A stretch of DNA of 64,000 nucleotides from Octopus vulgaris (GCA_951406725.2 OX597814.1:122946001-123010000), one strand, 5' to 3'. Positions 5,818 to 33,014 are shown, numbered from the stretch's first letter. The notes: a model not told the origin generated them from the sequence alone. Program-made: numbers and translations.

Positions 5818-5908
<91 letters not shown>

Positions 5909-6004: not shown

Positions 6005-6371
6005 AGGCTGCACGAAAAGCAGCAAACTGGCTAGTATTTGTAGAGAACATTGACTGCAAAACTAATAGTATAACACTATATAGAGTAATTTAATTAGTAG
6101 CTTCAACAACATCACTAATGGTTACACCACATAAGCATATCACAATAACAACCTCAAGTATTATAGCCGCTTTAAAACACCGAATAAATGGCCGTTTCAG
6201 ATATTTCTGGAAAAACTCATTCACCGCCCAAAAAACACGTAATGTATAGCGTCCACGTATTTCATAATATTGGTCCCCTTCTTTTCGTCGTAGTCCCACA
6301 CAAGCAATAGGGAATTTTAGAAATTTACAAGACTCGGGGTCAGATAAGATAATAAACATAGGATAATGAAC

Positions 6372-17195: not shown

Positions 17196-18118
17196 TTGGG
17201 TTGTCCGGAAAGTTCGTGCCGATTTTTAAAGGAAAGAAAAAGGTCAATAAATACTTGCCATTACATTTTTAATCAACTAAATATGAAACATTTTGTTGCG
17301 CAATGCGTCTCCATCTTTCCTTTAATTTGAAAATAACCTCTTCCCAGAATTGAGGTGGTTTCGTGGCAAAGAATTGATCAAGGTATCTTTTTATGTCATC
17401 CAAGGAATTGAAATTTTTACCAATAAGACTATTCTGCAGAGACCTGAATAAGTGGAAATCCGAAGGACCAATATTTGGTGAATATGGAGGGTGGGAAAAT
17501 ACATCCCAGCAATTTTTGTCTGGTTTCTAAAACAACACCCTTCTGATCGTTTCTCTTGAATTGCTGCTTTTAACTCGTCCAGTTGTGTGCAGTATTTCTC
17601 AGAGTTAATTGTCTGGTTACTTGGGAGAACCTCATAGTACAGGATTCCTTTCCAATCCCACCAGACACAAAGCAAGACGTTTTTAGGGTGAAGACCCACT
17701 TTTGGGATGGCTAAGGGTGGCTCATGTCGCTTACCCCAGGATTGCTTTCTCTGAACATTTCGGTAGATAATCCTTTTCTCAGCACCAGTCACAATTTGCT
17801 TTAAAAAAGGCGTTTTCATTCCGTTTATAAAGTGAATCACAGATGGAAATGCGATCCAAAAGGTTCTTCTCACTCAACTCGTACCCAAACATCGTAGCGA
17901 TTTGTGTACCCAAGCTTTACCAGGTGCTCATGAACGACGGATTTTGATAGGTTGAGGCTTTCTGCCACTTCTCGGGTTGTGCAATGTGGGTTATTCTCAA
18001 TTAATGACTTGATTTGGTCATCATCTGTAGTGGATGGTCTGCATGATCGCTTTTCATCAGTAAAGCTACAATCTCCAGCTCGGAACCTTGCGAACCACTT
18101 CTGTACAGTTCTTTCGGA
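17196..18118 (-). mobile_element. Mariner element, 5'-truncated, decayed transposase
   Basis: TIR ta|ttgggttgtccggaaagttcgtgccgattt. Motifs ERTVQKWFARF, IVTGAEKR, LHPKNVLLCVWWD and HPPYSPNIGPSDFHLF. The region of the second catalytic Asp is deleted. Confidence 0.92.
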
Positions 18119-18119
18119 G

Positions 18120-18238
18120 TAACGCTGCGATGGACTGGCGTCCCATCCAGCTGGGGGGAACACATACGCCACAGGAACCGGGAAACCGGGCCAATGAGCC
18201 TGGCTAGGCTTGAAAAGGGCGCATAAATAAAAACAAAT
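18120..18238 (+). mobile_element. SINE 3' fragment with V-domain-like motif (possibly the 3' part of family C)
   Basis: gctgcgatggactggcgtcccatccag...ggaaaccggg..atgagcc followed by an A-rich tail. It abuts the mariner truncation. Confidence 0.55.
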
Positions 18239-18249
18239 AATAATTTCAA

Positions 18250-18720
18250 AGGAACAGAGACTGTGGGAGCAGTGATGCACAAAGCAAAGCGAGGACACGA
18301 TTTGGTATTAGTCTAGTTGTTGTGGTAAACACTTTCTTATTGTGCAAACTCACTTTCATTTGTAGGTTGTCTGCATTGTGTAGAGTTTCTGTGTCAGTCG
18401 AACGTTCAGTTTTACAGAACAGAAATTAATTAGAACCTTTAATAAAACATTAATAGTGTCAGGTTGATAGGAGTCAACCAAGAGGAAATGACATCGATTC
18501 TGATAGATTTGTAACCATTGAATAAGAATTAGTTGTTCGTAGATAAATAATTCAACTAAGTTCGGAAATAGCAGAAGGCAATTTAGAAGGAATAGAGAAA
18601 CCTGCAAAGACTGTATAAATGCTCTGTTGTTCTTAATAAATCTATAGAGCATAGATATCATATATTTATTACTTAATCTGCTTTAGTCTGTTCTGATAAG
18701 GTCTTGACTGGCCTTCGGGA
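18250..18720 (-). pseudogene. Old Penelope-like RT/thumb remnant
   Basis: PNLVELFIYEQLILIQWLQIY resembles ANLFM---E---W-RYIDD. Downstream LCFVHHCSHSLCS resembles YL-F-S-HP. Confidence 0.3.
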
Positions 18721-19142: not shown

Positions 19143-19233
<91 letters not shown>

Positions 19234-19282
19234 AAACAAGTAAAAAATAGAAAATGCTAAAATAATTTTATAGTGAACATTT

Positions 19283-19320
19283 CAGTACCGGTTTCGGTCA
19301 TTTTGAGACCTTTTCAACTG
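19283..19320 (-). ncRNA. Minimal type I hammerhead ribozyme, U3-A8 core variant
   Basis: Minus strand CAG-UUGAAAA-GGUC(UCAAAAU)GACC-GAAAC-CG-GUA-CUG: stems I and II, GAAA, NUH triplet and palindromic ACCGGU stem III. Confidence 0.75.
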
Positions 19321-19674
19321 TAACGATTAAATAATTAAATTTAGAAAAATTAGAAGAAAAGTTTTTTTAAAACAATATTTCTATAGTAGTGTTCAGATTT
19401 AAGTGGCATTCTGCCTTTCTCTGACTCCCTTGTTTGCACTTGTGTGTTCGAGGTAGTTGTGAGTTCTTGGTAGGGTAGTAGAGGGAAGGCTGGTGAGGAA
19501 AGGGGGTGGGAGAATCTGGGAGTGCCCTGATGGTCGTATTTTGAATGGTCAGTGGCGGCTGGCAGTCTCAGTTCAATTCAGGAGAATATTTATATCGACA
19601 GGCTTGTTTATAGAATTAGCGTAGGTGTTATACTAAAAAACATTAGTGACAAACTTAAGGGGTAGGGGGTGGAG

Positions 19675-19922
19675 AGAAGAAGAAGAAGAAGAAGAAGAAG
19701 AAGAAGAAGAAGAAGAAGAAGAAGGAGAAGGAGAAGGAGAAGATGATGGTGATGGTGGTGATGATTATGACGACGATGATGATGATAACGATGATGATGA
19801 AGAAGAAGAAGAAGAAGAAGAAGGAGGAGAAGGAGAAGATGGTGGTGATGATGGTGGCGATGATGATGACGCCGATGATGATGATAACGATGATGATGAA
19901 GAAGAAGAAGAAGAAAAAAACA
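19675..19922. repeat. (GAA)n/(GAT)n compound microsatellite inside the PLE 3' UTR
   Basis: Mirrored at 22415-22660 in the inverted arm. Confidence 0.9.
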
Positions 19923-20047
19923 GAGAAGGGAGAATATGAATGGGTGTAAATATAGCTATGAAGGGGCTGATTAGTAATGGATTCTATGGAGTGTAGTATT
20001 TGTGTGTGTATATATATTTTTTTCTTTTATTCTAAAGTTGAGGTATA

Positions 20048-21427
20048 TTAATTGTTTGTCGTAGACCCGTTAAGAAGTGGCTTGTATTTTGTAATAAAGA
20101 GATTTTCTTTACTTATTCTTTGTCTCGAGGTTGTATCGTCCCTAAATTGGTAGAGGGGGAAAATTCTGAAGTTTGGTGTTTTTTTGTTGGCGCAAGTATC
20201 TATGTGTTGGCTAAAAGCTATTTTTCTGTTTTGGGGAATTTTTATCTGGGATCTGTGCAGGGCCATTCGTTTACGCAAACCATTTTTTGTTTGGCCTATG
20301 TACTGCTCTTGACACCCGGAGCAGGTTAGTGAGTATATTAGGTTCTCCGAAGCACATGTGAAGTTGCTTTTCACTGTAAACCGTTGTCCCTGTTTGAAGG
20401 AGAACTCAGAACCCTCGATTAGATAGTCGCATATCCCGCAATTGGGTCTTCCACATTTTTTTACTGTCGGCTTCTGTGTTGAAGAGTGAATTCGGGCTTG
20501 TGTAAGGAGACTTTTCATGGATCTAGGCTGTCTTTTGCTTTTTATGATCGTGTGTGTTTGGAGGATTGTGTTCATTCTGTGGTCTTTTTTTAGGAGGGGT
20601 ATGTTGTGGAGGATGGTGTCGAAGGCTTCGTTATTGAGAGGGTTGTGTGTGGAGATGTATGGTAAGGCTTTTGGTTGTAAGTTTTTCTTTGATTTGGGAT
20701 GTCTCAGTTCCTTGATGTTAAGTTGAAGGGCACGTTGAATGCACTTGTCAATAAGTGAAGGTGGATAGTTCCTGGTGATTAGGGTATCTTTTAGTTCTTG
20801 TAGTCGTGTGTCTCTGGTGTTTGCGTTAGAGACTATAGTGCATATCCTTTTTGCTAGATTGAAGGGGATATTCATCCTGGTGTGTCTGGGGTGGCATGAA
20901 TTGAATGGAAGATATTGCTTAGAGTCTGTAGGCTTATAGTATATGTCTGTTTCTATTATATTATTAGCTTTCTTAATGAGGATATCGAGGAAGGGGAGTT
21001 GTTGTTGGCTATATTCCATCGTGAATTGGATGTTTACGTCCAGTCCGTTTAAAATTTTCTGGAATTCTATGAGTTTTTCTATATTTTTATGCCAAATGAT
21101 GAAACAGTCATCTAGATATCTCTTCCAGTTGTTTTCTATGTAGATGGAGAAAGGGCTGCCATATCTTTCTAGAACCTTACGATACAGACTGATCTCTAGG
21201 TATCCTATGACTAGGTTGGCAAAGGAGGGGGCCATTCGTGTACCCATCGCAGTCCCCGATTTTTGTCGGTAGAAGTTGTCATTGAAGGCGAAGAAGTTAT
21301 TTTCCAGGATGAATTTAACCCCTTCTATCACAAATTCTTTTTTGATGCGGTGTGGTAGTTCGTTGGCGTGATTCTCTAGCCAGAATTGGATTGCCTCTAG
21401 TCCTAGGTTGTGGGGGATATTGGAGTA
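20048..21427 (-). CDS. PLE reverse transcriptase (partial) plus GIY-YIG endonuclease, uninterrupted frame
   Basis: The 427 aa ORF extends upstream without stops to the junction. RT motifs QKSGTAMGT and WKRYLDDCF; endonuclease NLIYSLTCSGCQEQYIGQT..RMALH..SQH (CCHH). Confidence 0.9.
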   Translation of the reverse strand, partial: YSNIPHNLGLEAIQFWLENHANELPHRIKKEFVIEGVKFILENNFFAFNDNFYRQKSGTAMGTRMAPSFANLVIGYLEISLYRKVLERYGSPFSIYIENNWKRYLDDCFIIWHKNIEKLIEFQKILNGLDVNIQFTMEYSQQQLPFLDILIKKANNIIETDIYYKPTDSKQYLPFNSCHPRHTRMNIPFNLAKRICTIVSNANTRDTRLQELKDTLITRNYPPSLIDKCIQRALQLNIKELRHPKSKKNLQPKALPYISTHNPLNNEAFDTILHNIPLLKKDHRMNTILQTHTIIKSKRQPRSMKSLLTQARIHSSTQKPTVKKCGRPNCGICDYLIEGSEFSFKQGQRFTVKSNFTCASENLIYSLTCSGCQEQYIGQTKNGLRKRMALHRSQIKIPQNRKIAFSQHIDTCANKKTPNFRIFPLYQFRDDTTSRQRISKENLFITKYKPLLNGSTTNN

Positions 21428-22291
21428 CTTCCATTCAATTCATGCCACCCCAGACACACCAGGATGAATATCCCCTTCAATCTAGCAAAAAGGATATGCA
21501 CTATAGTCTCTAACGCAAACACCAGAGACACACGACTACAAGAACTAAAAGATACCCTAATCACCAGGAACTATCCACCTTCACTTATTGACAAGTGCAT
21601 TCAACGTGCCCTTCAACTTAACATCAAGGAACTGAGACATCCCAAATCAAAGAAAAACTTACAACCAAAAGCCTTACCATACATCTCCACACACAACCCT
21701 CTCAATAACGAAGCCTTCGACACCATCCTCCACAACATACCCCTCCTAAAAAAAGACCACAGAATGAACACAATCCTCCAAACACACACGATCATAAAAA
21801 GCAAAAGACAGCCTAGATCCATGAAAAGTCTCCTTACACAAGCCCGAATTCACTCTTCAACACAGAAGCCGACAGTAAAAAAATGTGGAAGACCCAATTG
21901 CGGGATATGCGACTATCTAATCGAGGGTTCTGAGTTCTCCTTCAAACAGGGACAACGGTTTACAGTGAAAAGCAACTTCACATGTGCTTCGGAGAACCTA
22001 ATATACTCACTAACCTGCTCCGGGTGTCAAGAGCAGTACATAGGCCAAACAAAAAATGGTTTGCGTAAACGAATGGCCCTGCACAGATCCCAGATAAAAA
22101 TTCCCCAAAACAGAAAAATAGCTTTTAGCCAACACATAGATACTTGCGCCAACAAAAAAACATCAAACTTCAGAATTTTCCCCCTCTACCAATTTAGGGA
22201 CGATACAACCTCGAGACAAAGAATAAGTAAAGAAAATCTCTTTATTACAAAATACAAGCCACTTCTTAACGGGTCTACGACAAACAATTAA
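21428..22291 (+). CDS. PLE thumb/linker/GIY-YIG endonuclease coding segment (5'-truncated)
   Basis: The 293 aa ORF is identical to the left-arm C-terminus except one residue. Its first six codons derive from the junction. Confidence 0.8.
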   Translation, partial: LPFNSCHPRHTRMNIPFNLAKRICTIVSNANTRDTRLQELKDTLITRNYPPSLIDKCIQRALQLNIKELRHPKSKKNLQPKALPYISTHNPLNNEAFDTILHNIPLLKKDHRMNTILQTHTIIKSKRQPRSMKSLLTQARIHSSTQKPTVKKCGRPNCGICDYLIEGSEFSFKQGQRFTVKSNFTCASENLIYSLTCSGCQEQYIGQTKNGLRKRMALHRSQIKIPQNRKIAFSQHIDTCANKKTSNFRIFPLYQFRDDTTSRQRISKENLFITKYKPLLNGSTTNN

Positions 22292-23010
22292 TATACCTCA
22301 ACTTTAGAATAAAAGAAAAAAATATATATACACACACAAATACTACACTCCATAGAATCCATTACTAATCAGCCCCTTCATAGCTATATTTACACCCATT
22401 CATATTCTCCCTTCTCTCTTTTTTTCTTCTTCTTCTTCTTCATCATCATCGTTATCATCATCATCGGCGTCATCATCATCGCCACCATCATCACCACCAT
22501 CTTCTCCTTCTCCTCCTTCTTCTTCTTCTTCTTCTTCATCATCATCGTTATCATCATCATCGTCGTCATAATCATCACCACCATCACCATCATCTTCTCC
22601 TTCTCCTTCTCCTTCTTCTTCTTCTTCTTCTTCTTCTTCTTCTTCTTCTTCTTCTTCTCCACCCCCTACCCCTTAAGTTTGTCACTAATGTTTTTTAGTA
22701 TAACACCTACGCTAATTCTATAAACAAGCCTGTCGATATAAATATTCTCCTGAATTGAACTGAGACTGCCAGCCGCCACTGACCATTCAAAATACGACCA
22801 TCAGGGCACTCCCAGATTCTCCCACCCCCTTTCCTCACCAGCCTTCCCTCTACTACCCTACCAAGAACTCACAACTACCTCGAACACACAAGTGCAAACA
22901 AGGGAGTCAGAGAAAGGCAGAATGCCACTTAAATCTGAACACTACTATAGAAATATTGTTTTAAAAAAACTTTTCTTCTAATTTTTCTAAATTTAATTAT
23001 TTAATCGTTA

Positions 23011-23048
23011 CAGTTGAAAAGGTCTCAAAATGACCGAAACCGGTACTG
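23011..23048 (+). ncRNA. Minimal type I hammerhead ribozyme, U3-A8 core variant
   Basis: cag ttgaaaa ggtc tcaaaat gacc gaaac cg gta ctg in the PLE 3' UTR, 60-90 nt before the element end. Confidence 0.75.
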
Positions 23049-23161
23049 AAATGTTCACTATAAAATTATTTTAGCATTTTCTATTTTTTACTTGTTTTTT
23101 CATATATATCAACTCGTGTGTTCCTTTTCACCCTTATACATATATATATATATATATACAT

Positions 23162-24059: not shown

Positions 24060-25500
24060 TATTACTGCTGGCTTGCAGTCTCCTTTTGAGGAAAAGCCTG
24101 GAAGAGGGTACTCCGACGTAAAACTTGCAGTCAACTAAGTATTAATCATCTTGCTTTGCTTGTCACTGGAATCTACTATTTTAACCCAAAGAGTGGCAAA
24201 AGTTTTGTACGAGCGTTTGTCACTGAAATCCAATGAAGTACAGATGCCCCCGACAAAACACCATCATCGTACAATCATCACTTTTCAAAAGTCCTATGGC
24301 AATAGAGGTGTAGCGATGTATGCAGACTTGACCGGTTGGAAGCATACAATTACAAATCCGCACATAAGGCGGCAGGGTTCTTATCTTAACATCGCTAACA
24401 TGTTTTCATGAACATGAACCGCTTCCGGTGGAGAATCCTGTATCTGAGCAGCCCTTTTAAGAACACAGCTCACCTAGATATGCAGGGAAGGTGCTAGAAA
24501 AGTTGCACAAAAAATTGCTATCTTTTCTCTGCTGGTTAATTTACTGTAGCTAAAGATGGTTCAATTTAGCAGGAATGAACAAAGAATTGATATAAACAAT
24601 GATAACAAGTATGCAAGGAAGAAGGTTTCTCTTAACCTGGCCTGTTGGAATGTAAGAATCCCTTTAGATCAAGCAGATAGGCTTAAAGGAAGAACAGCTC
24701 TTGTAACTAAGGGGCTAAGGCGTCTTAATGTTGATATTGCAGCTCTTTCTGAAACAAGATGTTCAGGTAAGGATTATCTTGTCGAAAGAGCAGCAGCTTT
24801 CACATTATTCTGGGTTGGGAAGCCAAAGGGAGAGAAAAGGGAAGGTGGTGTTGGGTTTGTAATCAGAAGTGATTTGGTAAAGGACCTTGAACAACCACAA
24901 AGCATAAACAAACGCATAATGAAACTCCGGATCACCCTTTCTTGTGAACGTTTTGTAACTGTTTTCTCCATTTATGCTCCTACACTTTCAGCTAGTGAGG
25001 AAAATATCCATGCATTTTATGGAGCTTAGAAGTATTCTGTCTGTTCCTTTGAATGAGAAGTTGGTTGTGCTTGGTGACTTTAGTGCACGTGTTGGTAGAG
25101 ACTGTGGTGCTTGGAATGTACTTGGGCGTTACGGAATAGAAAAGATGAGCAACAATGTGTTGCATGTGCTACAAATGTGCTCTGAGCTAGGGTTGGTTGT
25201 TGGGAATACTTTCATAAGTTGAAGCATAGAGTTATCTGGATTCACCCAAGATCAAAGCAAGATCACATGAATGACTTCGTATTAACTCGGAAACCTGACT
25301 TACAAGATTTGTGCAGCCTCAAGCTATTGTGTGGTGTTGATTGCAATATTGATTACAAAATGATTAGGGCTAAGTTCAAGTTCAGGGTTCAGGGCCTGCA
25401 AGAAGATTTGTAGTGCAGGTGTACGAGTACCAAAGAGAATTGATGTAGGGCGGCTAAAACAACCACAAGCTTGCAGTTATTTCAGGAGAGATGCAGCAAT
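24060..25500 (+). mobile_element. RTE-clade LINE 5' part: probable 5' UTR and decayed AP endonuclease
   Basis: LACWNVR, DIAALSETR, GGVGF, IYAPT, VLGDFSARVG, VGNTF and WIHPRSK in shifted frames (24556-25413). The 5' boundary is approximate. Confidence 0.85.
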
Positions 25501-25687: not shown

Positions 25688-25750
<63 letters not shown>

Positions 25751-25751
<1 letters not shown>

Positions 25752-28135
25752 AGAAATTTAAAAAGGAAAATATGCAAACTTACATGGTTTTAATATAATT
25801 TTTAATATATCGACCGGTTTCGCTATCGCTATTCATGATATTATGTCAAATTTATTGGAATATATATTTTTTCTTAAGAAGAAATTTGGTCCATGTTGTG
25901 TGTGATGAAATTCACGAGCGAATGACTTCACAAGTAGACAAATAAAGGGAGGTAATTGGCTGTTATTATTGTTATTGTTGTGTGTAAAGGAGATAACTGT
26001 TCGGCTTTCGGTAATGGGTGAGGATTAAATATGTGTACAGAAAAGAGACAGGTTTTAAAAAAACCTTGTTTAGTAGGGGATTTATGTCCAGTGATGTAAT
26101 CGTGAATGGAATATGTAAAAATATAAAAGTTGGTTACGCGTGCATATTAAGACGTGTTTTGTATTTTTCAATGAAAAAAAAATTCTTTATTTAACCATTC
26201 TAGTTGAGAGATTGCGTCTTTGCACTGGTAGTAAGGGAAGACTGTGAAATTTGGTTTGATGTTACCTGCACATTTTTCTATGTGTTCAGTGAGAGGAAGT
26301 TGTCTGTATTGCGGGAAACGGATTTGCTCCTTATGCAGAGTGATTCTCTTTCTCAAAGTTAAACTCGTTTGTCTAATGTACTGATGACCGCAACCCGAGC
26401 AGGTTATTGCATAAATTAGTTTATCAGAGGTACAGCTGAAGCTAGTTTTAATTGTGAACCTTTGTCCTTGTTTGAAAAGGAAACCTGAGCCTTCAAGCAG
26501 GTTCGATAGTTCAGGCGTCCACATTTTTCAACCGTTGGTTTCGTGGTTGTTTTGTAAAGCTTTGCATTTGTTAGTAGTCTCTTTAGCGATTTGTCTTGTT
26601 TTTTTGCATTTGATGACTTTGTGTGTTTTCAGGATGTCGTTCATTTTTGGATCTCTAGTTAGTAAAAAGAGAGTTTGCACAATAGTGTTGAATGCCTCAC
26701 TGTTTCTGGGGTTGTGTGTTGATATAAAAGGTAATGTTTTGGTTTGAGGTGTGGTGCTATGTTTTCTTGTTCTTAGTGTTTTTGTGTCTAATTGTTTGGC
26801 ACGTTTAATTCCCTCGTCGATAAGAGAGGGTGGATATTGTCTTTCAATAAGTGTTGTTTTGAGGTCTTGAAGACGAAGGTCCCGAGTTGTTCTATCAGAC
26901 ACTATTGTGCAGATCCTTTTTGCTAAGTTAAAAGGGATGCTTATTTTTATGTGTTTCGGGTGGCATGAGTTAAGAAGAAGATATTGTTTTGAATCAGTTG
27001 GTTTATAATAAATGTCAGTTATGATTTCATTGTTAACTTTTTTTATCATGATGTCTAAAAATGGAAGTTGTTCTTTGTTATATTCCATTGTGAATTGAAT
27101 GTTATTATTTATGCCATTTAGTGTTGTTTTGAAATCCAAAAATTTGTCGATGTCCTCCTTCCAAATGATAAAACAGTCACCCAGGTATCGCTTCCATTTT
27201 GCTCTTATGTAGAGGTAAAATGGGTAACCATATTTCTGAAGTGATATTTCATATAAGGTGAATTCAAAATAACCCATTATTAGGTTCGCAAGGACAGGAG
27301 CTGCTTTCGTCCCCATCGCAACTCCACATTTCTGACGATAGTATGTGTTCTCAAATAGGAAATAATTGTTCTGAAGTATAAATTTTAAGGATTCAATAAT
27401 AAAAATCTGGTTTATGCGTTCCGGGAGGACTTCAGTGTACTTTTCCAACCAGAATTTAATTGCTTTTATTCCATAATCATGGGGGATGTTGATGTAAGGA
27501 TTGATTACATCGAGGGTGACCAATACTGCCTCTTCATTAATCGTTTTTGATAGGTGTTCTAGCATGTCTAAATCATCCCTAATGAAGCTTTTGATGTATT
27601 TCAGCAAGGGTTTCAGTAGGATGTCTAGAAAATTGCTTAGTCAGTGGGTTTCACAGGCCGGCCCAGCTACAATGAGTCTTAAAGTCAAGTCTTCTGGCGT
27701 TTGGATATTTATATATTTGCCTGGTGATTGTTTGCAGGCTTCATTGATTATCTTGCTCTCGTGTATTTTAGGGAGGCCATAAAAAAGACTGGGTTTACAT
27801 TTGAAGTTCGCGATGTAGTCTGTTTCTTTTTCTGTCAGGTCTTTTCCATGTAGAAGAATTAAGGATGCAAGATTTTTCATTGTTTTTTGTTGTTTATAGT
27901 TTATAATTTTTGCGTAGAAGGGCTCGTTTTCTAATATGGAAAGTACTAGTTTTTTATAGTGTTCTGTGTCCATCAGAACTACAGCACTTCCTTTGTCAGC
28001 TTCTTCAATTGTCAGGTCTTTGTCGTTTTTTAGTTCAGTCAGATTTTTCCATTCTAGATTGTTGAGGTTAGGATTAATTTTTCGTTTAATAGATGTGTAG
28101 GGGAAATTTTGGATATGGTTGCAGTAGTCATCCAG

Positions 28136-28212: not shown

Positions 28213-28216
<4 letters not shown>

Positions 28217-28420
28217 ATTAATCCAAACATGAACAAAGAGAAAACACAACAGCGCGAGGACGTGGAACAAGTATAGTGTTATTGGACGCTCAGGAAAGGA
28301 AAGAAAGAAGGAGGATTTAACGTTTTGAATGGAGCTCTTCGTCAGAAACATTGAAAAAGGAAAGGTTCAAGGAAGGGAAAAAGGAGAAAGAAAATCGCCA
28401 ACGATACACACGCGGTCACA
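28213..28420 (-). mobile_element. Short non-coding PLE-3'UTR-like piece with degenerate hammerhead (28316-28348)
   Basis: Minus strand ttt-ctgacga-agagctccattc-aaaac-gtta-aa: canonical CUGACGA, GAAA mutated, palindromic AACGTT. Bounded by (TG)n and (CA)n(TA)n. Confidence 0.5.
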
Positions 28421-31199: not shown

Positions 31200-31765
31200 C
31201 CTCTTTATAAATGTTTTGAAATCTTTTACAGCCTTGGATTTTTATCTCATTCTGTTAATTTTTTATATATACGCATGCTGATATATGACCTACGTTGGAC
31301 TCCGAACCTGGAGCTTAACTATAGTCTATCCATAGCATTTACTCAGCATTACCTGACACCTTTGGGTCTTTTTGACACCATTACATCTCAACAGCCCTCA
31401 TCGTTTGTTTTTACTGTTTTATTCTCATTGTTCTGCCTTTTACTGTTTTTACTGTCTTGTATTCTTTTTACTGTCTTGTATTGTTCTTACTGTCCTGTTC
31501 TTGTTACCACTTTTACCCTTCGTAACACGGAGTAGATGAAGCAGAGACAACTGAAGAAGGGGAATATTCCTTGTGTTGTATGTCTTGTACTCTGTTTTTT
31601 TCGCTGTTTGAAAAAAAGTTCGTTTCTATGTTTTTGTTCTTTGTTTTCGTTTCTCATTATGTTCAACGTTTTTTTATGTCCTGTACCCATATATGCATGT
31701 ATATTTACATATATGTGCAGGTATGTACATATATGTATGTATATATGCATATAGTTATATATTAT

Positions 31766-33014
31766 TTGTATGACGGTATGCAGGGAACAGTGCAGTTTGA
31801 CGGATCGCCCTCGGAGTCATTCCCCATCCAGAGTGGAGTGAAACAGGGTTGCGTTCTGGCGCCGACGCTCTTCGGAATCTTCTTCTCCCTTGTCCTGTCC
31901 TATGCCTCCAGAACGTCCGACGACGGAGTGTTCCTCCACACCAGGGCTGATGGTGGATTGTTCAATCTTGCGCGCCTCAGAGCTAAGACCAAAGTCCGTC
32001 AGGTGCTGATCAGAGAGATCCTCTTTGCTGACGATGCCGCCCTAACATCACACAACCAACCGGGTCTCCAGAGGCTGGTCAGCTCCCTGGCGGATGCCTG
32101 CCAAGAGTTCGGCCTTACCATCAGCCTGAAAAAGACAGAGATCATGGGCCAGGACGTCGGAGGGATCCCCAGCATCAGTGTCGGCGACCACAGCTTGCAG
32201 GTGGTGAACGATTTCACTTACCTGGGATCGACGGTCTCCAGCAGCCTGTCCCTCGAGCCGGAGCTGAACAGACGGATTGGGAAGGCTGCTGCTGCCATGG
32301 CTAAGCTCTCCAGGAGAGTGTGGGAAAACAACATGCTCACAATAACCACCAAGATCGCAGTGTACCGAGCCTGCGTGCTGAGCACCCTACTCTACGGCAG
32401 CGAGAGCTGGACAACATACACCCGGCAGGAATGCCGCCTCAGCGGCTTCCACATGCGGTGTCTTCGACGGATCCTTGGCATCTCCTGGAAGGACCGAGTA
32501 CCAAACGGAGTCATCCTGGAACAGACTAATATGCCAAGCATGTATGCCCTCCTCGTGCGGAGACGACTGCGCTGGCTCGGACACGTCTGCCGCATGCAGG
32601 ACGGTCGCATGCCTAAAGACATCCTGTACAGCGAACTCACCACGGGATCCCGACCCAAGGGACGTCCACAGCTACGATACAGGGACGTGTGCAAGCGCGA
32701 CCTGAGGACTGCCAACATCTGTGTGGACACGTGGGAGGAAACAGCTGCTGACCGCTCTGCCTGGCGTCGGACGGTGAGGAAAGGCGTTTCCATGGCTGAG
32801 GAGAGGAGAGCACAGCTGTGGTTGGACAGGCGGGACAGGAGGAGGACAACTGCAGCAACACCCCACACGTACCCATCGAAGTTCGTGTGCAGCAAATGTA
32901 CCAAGGACTGCCACTCTAGAATTGGACTGTTCAGTCACAGCAGACGCTGCACATCATCAAAGTAGGCCCCACCCTTGGCGCAACCCATTGTCTATCAAGA
33001 CAGAAGGGGAAAGA
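31766..33014 (+). mobile_element. RTE-clade LINE, 5'-truncated, uninterrupted RT plus C-terminal zinc finger, GC-rich
   Basis: GVKQGCVLAPTLF, LFADD, FTYLGS, LLYGSESW, RLRWLGHV and CSKC..HSRIGLFSHSRRC*. Short 3' UTR with stem-loop tgtctatcaagaca, then (TA)n. The first ~65 aa of the ORF track are flank. Confidence 0.95.

Follow-up and report, generated by a model that had tools for sequence, protein, structure and literature searches.

The terminal repeat of a decayed, 5′-truncated Penelope-like element (PLE) carries a 35-nt minimal hammerhead motif in which the Watson-Crick pair between residues 3 and 8 is A3-U8 and does not have the canonical C3-G8 identity. The motif lies on the minus strand (25841-25807) of the 64-kb stretch of DNA analysed here, which we call the window. 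Our results make it likely that this is the pseudo-LTR hammerhead of a two-ORF, Neptune-like Penelope family that uses A3-U8 in place of C3-G8, and that its RNA would need to dimerise with a member of the same family in order to cut after GUC. The following features of the element are referred to throughout.

25807..25841, minus strand: predicted minimal type I hammerhead with an A3-U8 core, read from the sequence; it equals the family majority, and A3-U8 is the family state
25813..25818, strand-symmetric: ACCGGT palindrome, the predicted 6-bp intermolecular helix III of the dimer
25780..25836, minus strand: upstream ORF of 18 codons, opened by the core residues A3-U4-G5; not the ORF1 start
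25750..26170, minus strand: 3′ UTR/pseudo-LTR of the A3-U8 PLE family with a terminal (TA)n microsatellite, delimited by genome copies and by the layout of copy L322
26168..28141, minus strand: broken, 5′-truncated ORF2 of the same element (reverse transcriptase with C-terminal GIY-YIG endonuclease), identified by ORFs, Pfam and homology

On the minus strand, the arms AUAUC (25841-37) and GAUAU (25811-07) form a stem I of 5 bp. They enclose the core AUGAAUA (25836-30), the segment GC GAUA GC (25829-22), which folds into a 2-bp stem II with a GAUA loop, and the segments GAAA (25821-18) and CCGG U C (25817-12). Stem II is closed by G10.1-C11.1, and A9 directly precedes G10.1 without an extra nucleotide. 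The cleavage triplet is GUC, and the predicted cut falls between 25812 and 25811. All other hammerhead core positions, namely U4 G5 A6, A9, G12 A13 A14 and A15.1-U16.1, are present together with the NUH triplet (GUC). This reading reproduced exactly the motif sequence, the 5-bp stem I, the GUC and the ACCGGU of the original prediction. Its placement about 55 nt from the 3′ end also held, since the (TA)n end of the host element is found there. Of the 30 nearest copies, 14 continue beyond this point with another tail of about 55 nt; the family has two 3′ termini.

A loose type I hammerhead descriptor found four matches in the window, and only the one at 25841-25807 possesses the palindrome and a 5-bp stem I. 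No Rfam match was obtained in the window at the gathering score, and none over 25807-25841 at E values up to 10; the motif is far shorter than the 77-nt Rfam HH9 model. The monomer folded no better than its shuffles (z = +0.73), and the same was true of its 71-nt and 146-nt contexts (z = +1.01 and +0.37). Stem I was absent from the predicted fold of the 146-nt context. Inspection for a loop-loop contact between stems I and II revealed none; the loop has 4 nt on a 2-bp stem, and the flanks vary among families.

The host element was characterised by its copies in the same genome (G000; 2.8 Gb in 227 contigs). A search with 25750..26170 gave 1,736 first-look candidates, the best 40 of which scored 90-96% identity, the window's own copy set aside. 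Longer copies consist of a pseudo-LTR with the hammerhead, an ORF1 of about 450 aa and an overlapping ORF2 in another frame. The stretch is recognised as a pseudo-LTR from L322, in which ORF2 ends before the motif and the next ORF1 starts after it. The ORF2 of the window copy contains in-frame stops, and its frame is locally shifted across the Cys-rich linker. Its Pfam matches to RVT_1 and GIY-YIG are weak, lying under the curated cut-offs, and over 660 aa it is 57% identical to an open PLE ORF2 of the same genome. The motif lies about 300-330 nt past the end of ORF2. The element thus displays the hallmarks of PLEs: a reverse transcriptase followed by a C-terminal GIY-YIG domain, pseudo-LTRs, a tail and inverted truncated copies. 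A linker of the form CX2-5CxxC before the endonuclease is described as a feature of Neptune and Nematis elements (PMC8557442). Sister copies L128, L080 and L030 carry the linker CGRPNCGTC (CX4CX2C), which is decayed and out of frame in the window copy; judged by this linker alone, the element appears Neptune-like. It does not have the arrangement of a retrozyme, as a single motif follows a coding region and there is no short non-coding tandem repeat.

None of the eight longer stretches retrieved had two same-strand motifs around a complete ORF2 of the A3-U8 family; in L323 two same-strand motifs surround a deleted ORF2. The 64-kb window contains no second motif of the window copy's family. Because its ORF is broken and 5′-truncated and no same-family motif accompanies it, the window copy, a fossil with an intact motif, probably has no present activity.

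A fossil with a broken ORF might be expected to carry a decayed ribozyme, and with no Rfam match over the motif it might equally be a chance match. We give almost no credence to the reading that A3-U8 arose here by random decay from C3-G8 or is a coincidence. Among the 30 copies most similar to the window copy, 29 retained A3 and 29 retained U8. The family pattern with positions 3 and 8 left free matched 587 sites in the genome and none in the reversed control. Among the first 100 of these 587 matches, 96 were A3-U8, four had single changes and none was C3-G8. The motif was fully intact in 14 of the 30 nearest copies; copies therefore decay after insertion. The AUGAAUA core proposed in the original prediction is thus fixed, and a CUGANGA consensus, which would have reduced this copy to a decayed one, did not occur. 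As judged from these copies, A3-U8 is the state of the family and decay is ruled out.

To what extent other hammerheads of this genome depart from C3-G8 was evident from patterns built around the ACCGGU palindrome. The class pattern TGANNA-N6-16-GAAACCGGTH had 14,497 matches in the genome compared with 1,428 in the reversed control. The first 30 of these comprised 21 U3-A8, four A3-U8, one C3-G8 and four unpaired cases, the last of which by inspection also lacked a stem I. An A3-U8 version of the pattern matched 1,672 times (control: 302), and a version allowing either C or G at positions 3 and 8 had 244 matches (control: nine). A hand count of the first 100 of these 244 gave 52 C3-G8, 44 G3-C8 and four mismatches. 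Most C3-G8 matches belong to a 359-nt retrozyme-like tandem repeat, and the G3-C8 matches with enough upstream DNA are located downstream of a PLE ORF2. In one lineage defined by a fixed 5′ arm of stem I and a fixed stem II, the first 100 of 143 matches were 85 A3-U8, ten G3-C8 and five others (hand count). ACCGGU hammerheads in this genome show all four Watson-Crick 3-8 pairs. Cores with a purine at 3, a pyrimidine at 8 and a short CG palindrome showed no excess (591 matches, control: 955), and the freedom at 3-8 therefore seems to belong to the ACCGGU class.

Several individual loci illustrate this diversity. G3-C8 PLE hammerhead families were found at L264, L271, L273, L284 and others, and one of them has stems I and II in common with an A3-U8 group. 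L242-L248 (G000:C1:20,002,278-20,004,542) and similar arrays are built of the 359-nt repeats in tandem, each unit bearing a single C3-G8 ACCGGU hammerhead, and L203 carries a U3-A8 motif related to them. The U3-A8 PLE family at L124-L126 has a longer palindrome (AACCGGUU) and a stem II of 4-5 bp. Two further sets of U3-A8 or A3-U8 families, one at L207, L208, L220 and L222 and the other at L197, L198, L200 and L217, have a stem II that is irregular at its base and lacks G10.1-C11.1; in the first set two unpaired bases precede G12. Across both sets, stem I is either well formed or decayed. L065 (G000:C1:7,828,096-7,828,240) is an inverted pair of one insertion, with a U3-A8 and an A3-U8 motif on the same stems. 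An independent A3-U8 subfamily inside the corresponding AGAAAU/AUUUCU family was rejected, since the L065 motif is a singleton, the only A3-U8 among 13 non-U3 copies. Avoidance of pairing between bases 3 and 17 was not upheld as a rule, since U3 was found together with A17.

A tree of the ORF2 C-termini adjoining the motifs placed A3-U8 in two positions, one being the window family and the other a group joined to G3-C8 copies with support of 100/99. At least three changes of the pair are required, all from one Watson-Crick pair to another, and a single A3-U8 clade was rejected (p-AU 0.000117). The tree has no root; A3-U8 may therefore have arisen twice or represent the ancestral state. Its 22 rows were picked from a 61-row quick tree after that tree had been viewed, omitting long-branch, fragmentary and redundant rows; the 61 rows were what remained of 73 with enough coverage after removal of 11 identical rows and one near-copy. 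In these trees A3-U8 is common to at least two separate lineages and U3-A8 to at least three families. The earlier proposal that each PLE family has a ribozyme variant of its own is correct in that families have their own variants, but the same variant recurs in separate lineages.

Covariation was assessed with 26 family representatives. Stem I was paired in 91.5% of cases, with double-sided changes in all five pairs, and stems I and II covaried across the representatives. None of 500 shuffles reached the covariation score, and pairing fell from 93.5% to 26-41% when the partners were slid. As the search pattern prescribed helix III, that helix is uninformative here. The pairing of 3 and 8 in all 26 is not independent evidence, as the representatives were hand-picked, many through patterns fixing these positions; the fair test of the 3-8 pair is provided by the counts with free positions. 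Across families the 3-8 pair changes together with stems I and II, while U4 G5 A6 A9 G12 A13 A14 and the palindrome are constant. Because stems I and II covary as well, selection on the hammerhead fold is well supported by these comparisons. The original prediction had drawn the same conclusion from three motifs within about 10 kb; it is the genome-wide families and the tree that support it, not these three motifs.

The other hammerheads of the window are the following.

23011..23048, plus strand: U3-A8 hammerhead of another PLE family (stem I CAG/CUG, 4-bp stem II, ACCGGU, GUA), from sequence and a weak Rfam HH9 match
19283..19320, minus strand: second, inverted copy of the U3-A8 hammerhead, from sequence
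28315..28349, minus strand: decayed C3-G8 minimal hammerhead of a third, short repeat, from sequence and genome copies

The U3-A8 hammerhead at 23011..23048 matched HH9 with an E value of 0.33 and lies about 740 nt downstream of its ORF2. The U3-A8 PLE occupies 19222-23109 as an inverted pair of 5′-truncated copies whose arms are 98-100% alike, and contains long GAA/GAT microsatellites in its 3′ UTR. The C3-G8 relic has a short CG-type palindrome instead of ACCGGU, and its A9 is followed by an additional A; nine of the 25 fetched copies, among them the window copy, have lost G12. Its repeat (28215-28400, minus strand) is about 190 nt long and has 1,765 first-look candidates in the genome. No PLE ORF was found within 1.5 kb of the repeat in the 24 other fetched copies, and it may be a non-autonomous PLE derivative. 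The claim that three different 3-8 pairs occur within about 10 kb is accurate as to distance, all of them lying inside 9.1 kb, but the third is a relic that has no ACCGGU, has lost G12 and is not flanked by a PLE ORF in those 24 copies. Elsewhere in the window, frames at 31526-32965 and 24550-25029 (both plus strand) resemble RTE-type LINE reverse transcriptase and endonuclease, and broken frames at 17391-18307 (minus strand) resemble a mariner transposase.

The way in which the motif could act was considered in terms of two RNAs. The cofold minimum of two motif copies corresponded exactly to the active secondary structure, at −15.3 kcal/mol, a rough energy that ignores the core. In the predicted homodimer, ACCGGU forms a helix of 6 bp, and each of the two stems I, 5 bp long, joins the two molecules. 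In our model, a lone RNA would have no stable fold. Two copies would anneal through ACCGGU to form helix III, and stem I would form between the strands, creating two active sites. The A3-U8 pair would take the structural role of C3-G8, bringing the 2′-OH of residue 8 close to the cleavage site, while G12 would act as the general base, a mechanism carried over from the canonical hammerhead; A3 is unable to mispair with C17. A tandem transcript would usually supply the partner in the form of its second pseudo-LTR, and cutting would trim the element RNA from longer transcripts. All four 3-8 pairs are reportedly active according to Przybilski and Hammann 2007. Contigs from four of 24 listed runs (organisms A and B, assumed to be RNA) cover the pseudo-LTR of L142, and these contigs carry no information on ends, strand or level.

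Published observations on related ribozymes fit this model. PLE hammerheads are described as having short palindromic helices III and as cutting weakly, as dimers (PMC4209133, PMC6765202), and swapped 3-8 pairs are active in vitro (PMC3088659). In the PLE ribozyme of the anole, a C3G/G8C exchange gives partial rescue, and cutting needs protein (PMC11167929); the element's own protein may likewise serve as a chaperone here, as shown for the anole PLE. We consider a same-family dimer, possibly assisted by protein, the likely mode of action.

The palindrome common to the A3-U8 and U3-A8 families had led to the suggestion that their RNAs cut each other in trans as a heterodimer. A mixed duplex is indeed predicted (−16.9 kcal/mol), and compatible partners with different 3-8 pairs exist elsewhere in the genome, namely A3-U8 and G3-C8 forms with AAAGCA/UGCUUU arms in common. 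However, catalysis would require an inter-strand stem I, and the two window families have 0 bp of stem I pairing in both directions, the mixed dimer being held by the palindrome duplex alone. The arms of the A3-U8 family reached at least 4 bp only with their own subfamilies and 0-2 bp with all 15 representatives having another 3-8 pair; among the representatives as a whole, 19 of 325 cross pairs reached 4 bp. The 3-8 variant itself is irrelevant to the choice of partner because bases 3 and 8 are on the same strand in the dimer. Cross-cleavage of the two window families is extremely improbable; at most, the shared palindrome could trap their RNAs in an inactive duplex. In the same-family model, stem I would restrict productive pairing to relatives.

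A reading that deserves more weight, although we regard it as rather unlikely, is that the fold is conserved while cleavage in vivo is negligible, the motif being a site of protein binding or RNA pairing near the start of reverse transcription. The predicted fold is very weak, PLE hammerheads have low activity in vitro (PMC4209133), and one of the two 3′ termini is about 55 nt away from the motif. In the anole PLE, uncut RNA is the main template, catalytic mutants still insert, and no RNA-seq ends were reported at the cut site (PMC11167929). As cleavage is dispensable there for insertion in vitro, a non-catalytic role is conceivable for the window motif. Against such a role, comparison of the families shows conservation or covariation at every catalytic-core position, at the NUH triplet and at the 3-8 pair, which is buried; this is not obviously needed by a mere binding site. 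Moreover, cleavage by the anole motif is seen in the presence of protein (PMC11167929). Self-cleavage of same-family dimers is the reading we prefer.

Residues A3-U4-G5 of the core form an AUG in fair context (A at −3) that opens the 18-codon ORF, which raises the idea that A3 was fixed as part of a functional start codon and that U8 followed to preserve the pair. An ORF start overlapping the hammerhead is known from the anole PLE (PMC11167929). In complete copies, however, ORF1 starts about 170 nt downstream of the core AUG (in L321, A3 is at 6074 and the ORF1 start at 5902), and the AUG used there is homologous to the ORF1 start of a U3-A8 family. The small ORF ends at a stop codon, its length varies among subfamilies, and related families do with U3, G3 or C3. 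A variant in which the core AUG opens a first coding exon followed by an intron was rejected: ORF1 starts elsewhere, no AG acceptor was found between the small ORF and ORF1 in L142, and a donor-like GUAAGU is not conserved in L142, L147 and L152. The same lack of splice signals speaks against fixation of A3 as a start codon, which we judge very improbable.

Only slightly less doubtful is a wider proposal, in which all four 3-8 pairs would be active, stem I would act as an address recognised by kin only, unrelated elements would jam one another, and the cut would remove the upstream AUG in the core to permit cap-independent translation of ORF1. Self-cleavage 25 nt downstream of the core AUG would remove it from the RNA. 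A second AUG with an immediate stop remains downstream of the cut, which weakens such a translation switch. Ribozyme cleavage is reported to drive cap-independent translation in viral 5′ UTRs (PMC13725137), and a switch is for that reason conceivable for A3-U8 families, yet unsupported here. We return to the dimeric pseudo-LTR ribozyme as the preferred interpretation.

A separate observation concerns the ORF1/ORF2 overlap, where a heptamer is kept in three PLE families.

L121 offset 3288 and L124 offset 3176 (both minus strand), L096:1180, L103:1190 and L115:1185: UUUUUUA heptamer

We take this heptamer to resemble a −1 ribosomal frameshift site. No strong hairpin was predicted downstream of it. 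A frameshifted ORF1 is noted for some PLEs (PMC8557442, legend to Fig. 1).

The motif resembles the minimal PLE hammerheads of Cervera and De la Pena 2014 (PMC4209133) in its pseudo-LTR location, type I topology, short palindromic helix III and G10.1-C11.1 pair, in the presence of many families per genome and in the proposed dimer mechanism. It differs in several respects from the hammerheads presented there. A3 or G3 is absent from the Fig. S3 representatives compared, and the motif here is A3-U8; a natural 3-8 swap described in that paper is U3-A8 in Schistosoma. Stem II has 2 bp instead of three or more, the extra nucleotide between 9 and 10.1, usual there and absent in few examples, is missing, and the palindrome is ACCGGU instead of the usual two-base insert. 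The PLE variants of Lunse, Weinberg and Breaker 2017, as summarised in PMC6765202, share the reduced stem III, the association with PLEs and cleavage as dimers. Of the 3-8 variants, Perreault et al. 2011 (PMC3088659) name U3-A8 as a natural one in the passages compared; in this genome, whole families have A3-U8 or G3-C8 as their state. The Poseidon element of the green anole (Frangione et al. 2024, PMC11167929) likewise has a PLE hammerhead near an ORF start, and its 3-8 pair was tested by the engineered C3G/G8C rescue. Its core is C3-G8 and the ORF start lies inside the motif, whereas here the core AUG is merely upstream and there are two ORFs. Type I topology and a weak palindromic helix III are also found in animal non-LTR retrozymes, which have been proposed to derive from PLEs (PMC7229834; bioRxiv 10.64898/2026.07.22.740005). 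This genome contains such a retrozyme-like element in the 359-nt C3-G8 ACCGGU repeat; the motif at 25807..25841 instead follows a reverse transcriptase-endonuclease ORF and lies outside short tandem arrays.

Dimeric PLE hammerheads, a 2-bp stem II and natural U3-A8 are thus already published (PMC4209133, PMC3088659, as far as these sources were compared). In a full-text literature search, in which colon spellings such as 'A3:U8' are unsearchable, we found no report naming natural A3-U8 or G3-C8. The work of Lunse et al. 2017, reportedly the largest collection of such hammerheads, was outside this comparison, and the absence of the two pairs from the literature is not secure. The present analysis adds the G3-C8 families, the series of four pairs, the occurrence of A3-U8 in two lineages and, against heterodimers, the argument from stem I.

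The structural lesson is one of confirmation, the C3-G8 pair being well established in the active hammerhead. What one genome adds is all four Watson-Crick forms of the 3-8 pair as family states, among them related A-U and G-C lineages on the same stems, which are ready-made natural constructs for a comparison of rates. From the stem I argument follows a rule, open to testing, as to which PLE transcripts are able to process one another. A search that insists on CUGANGA overlooks most ACCGGU-class hammerheads here, U3-A8 and A3-U8 together making up 25 of the first 30 listed. Counts of animal ribozymes may for this reason be too low, and claims of PLE clades without hammerheads may err in the same way.
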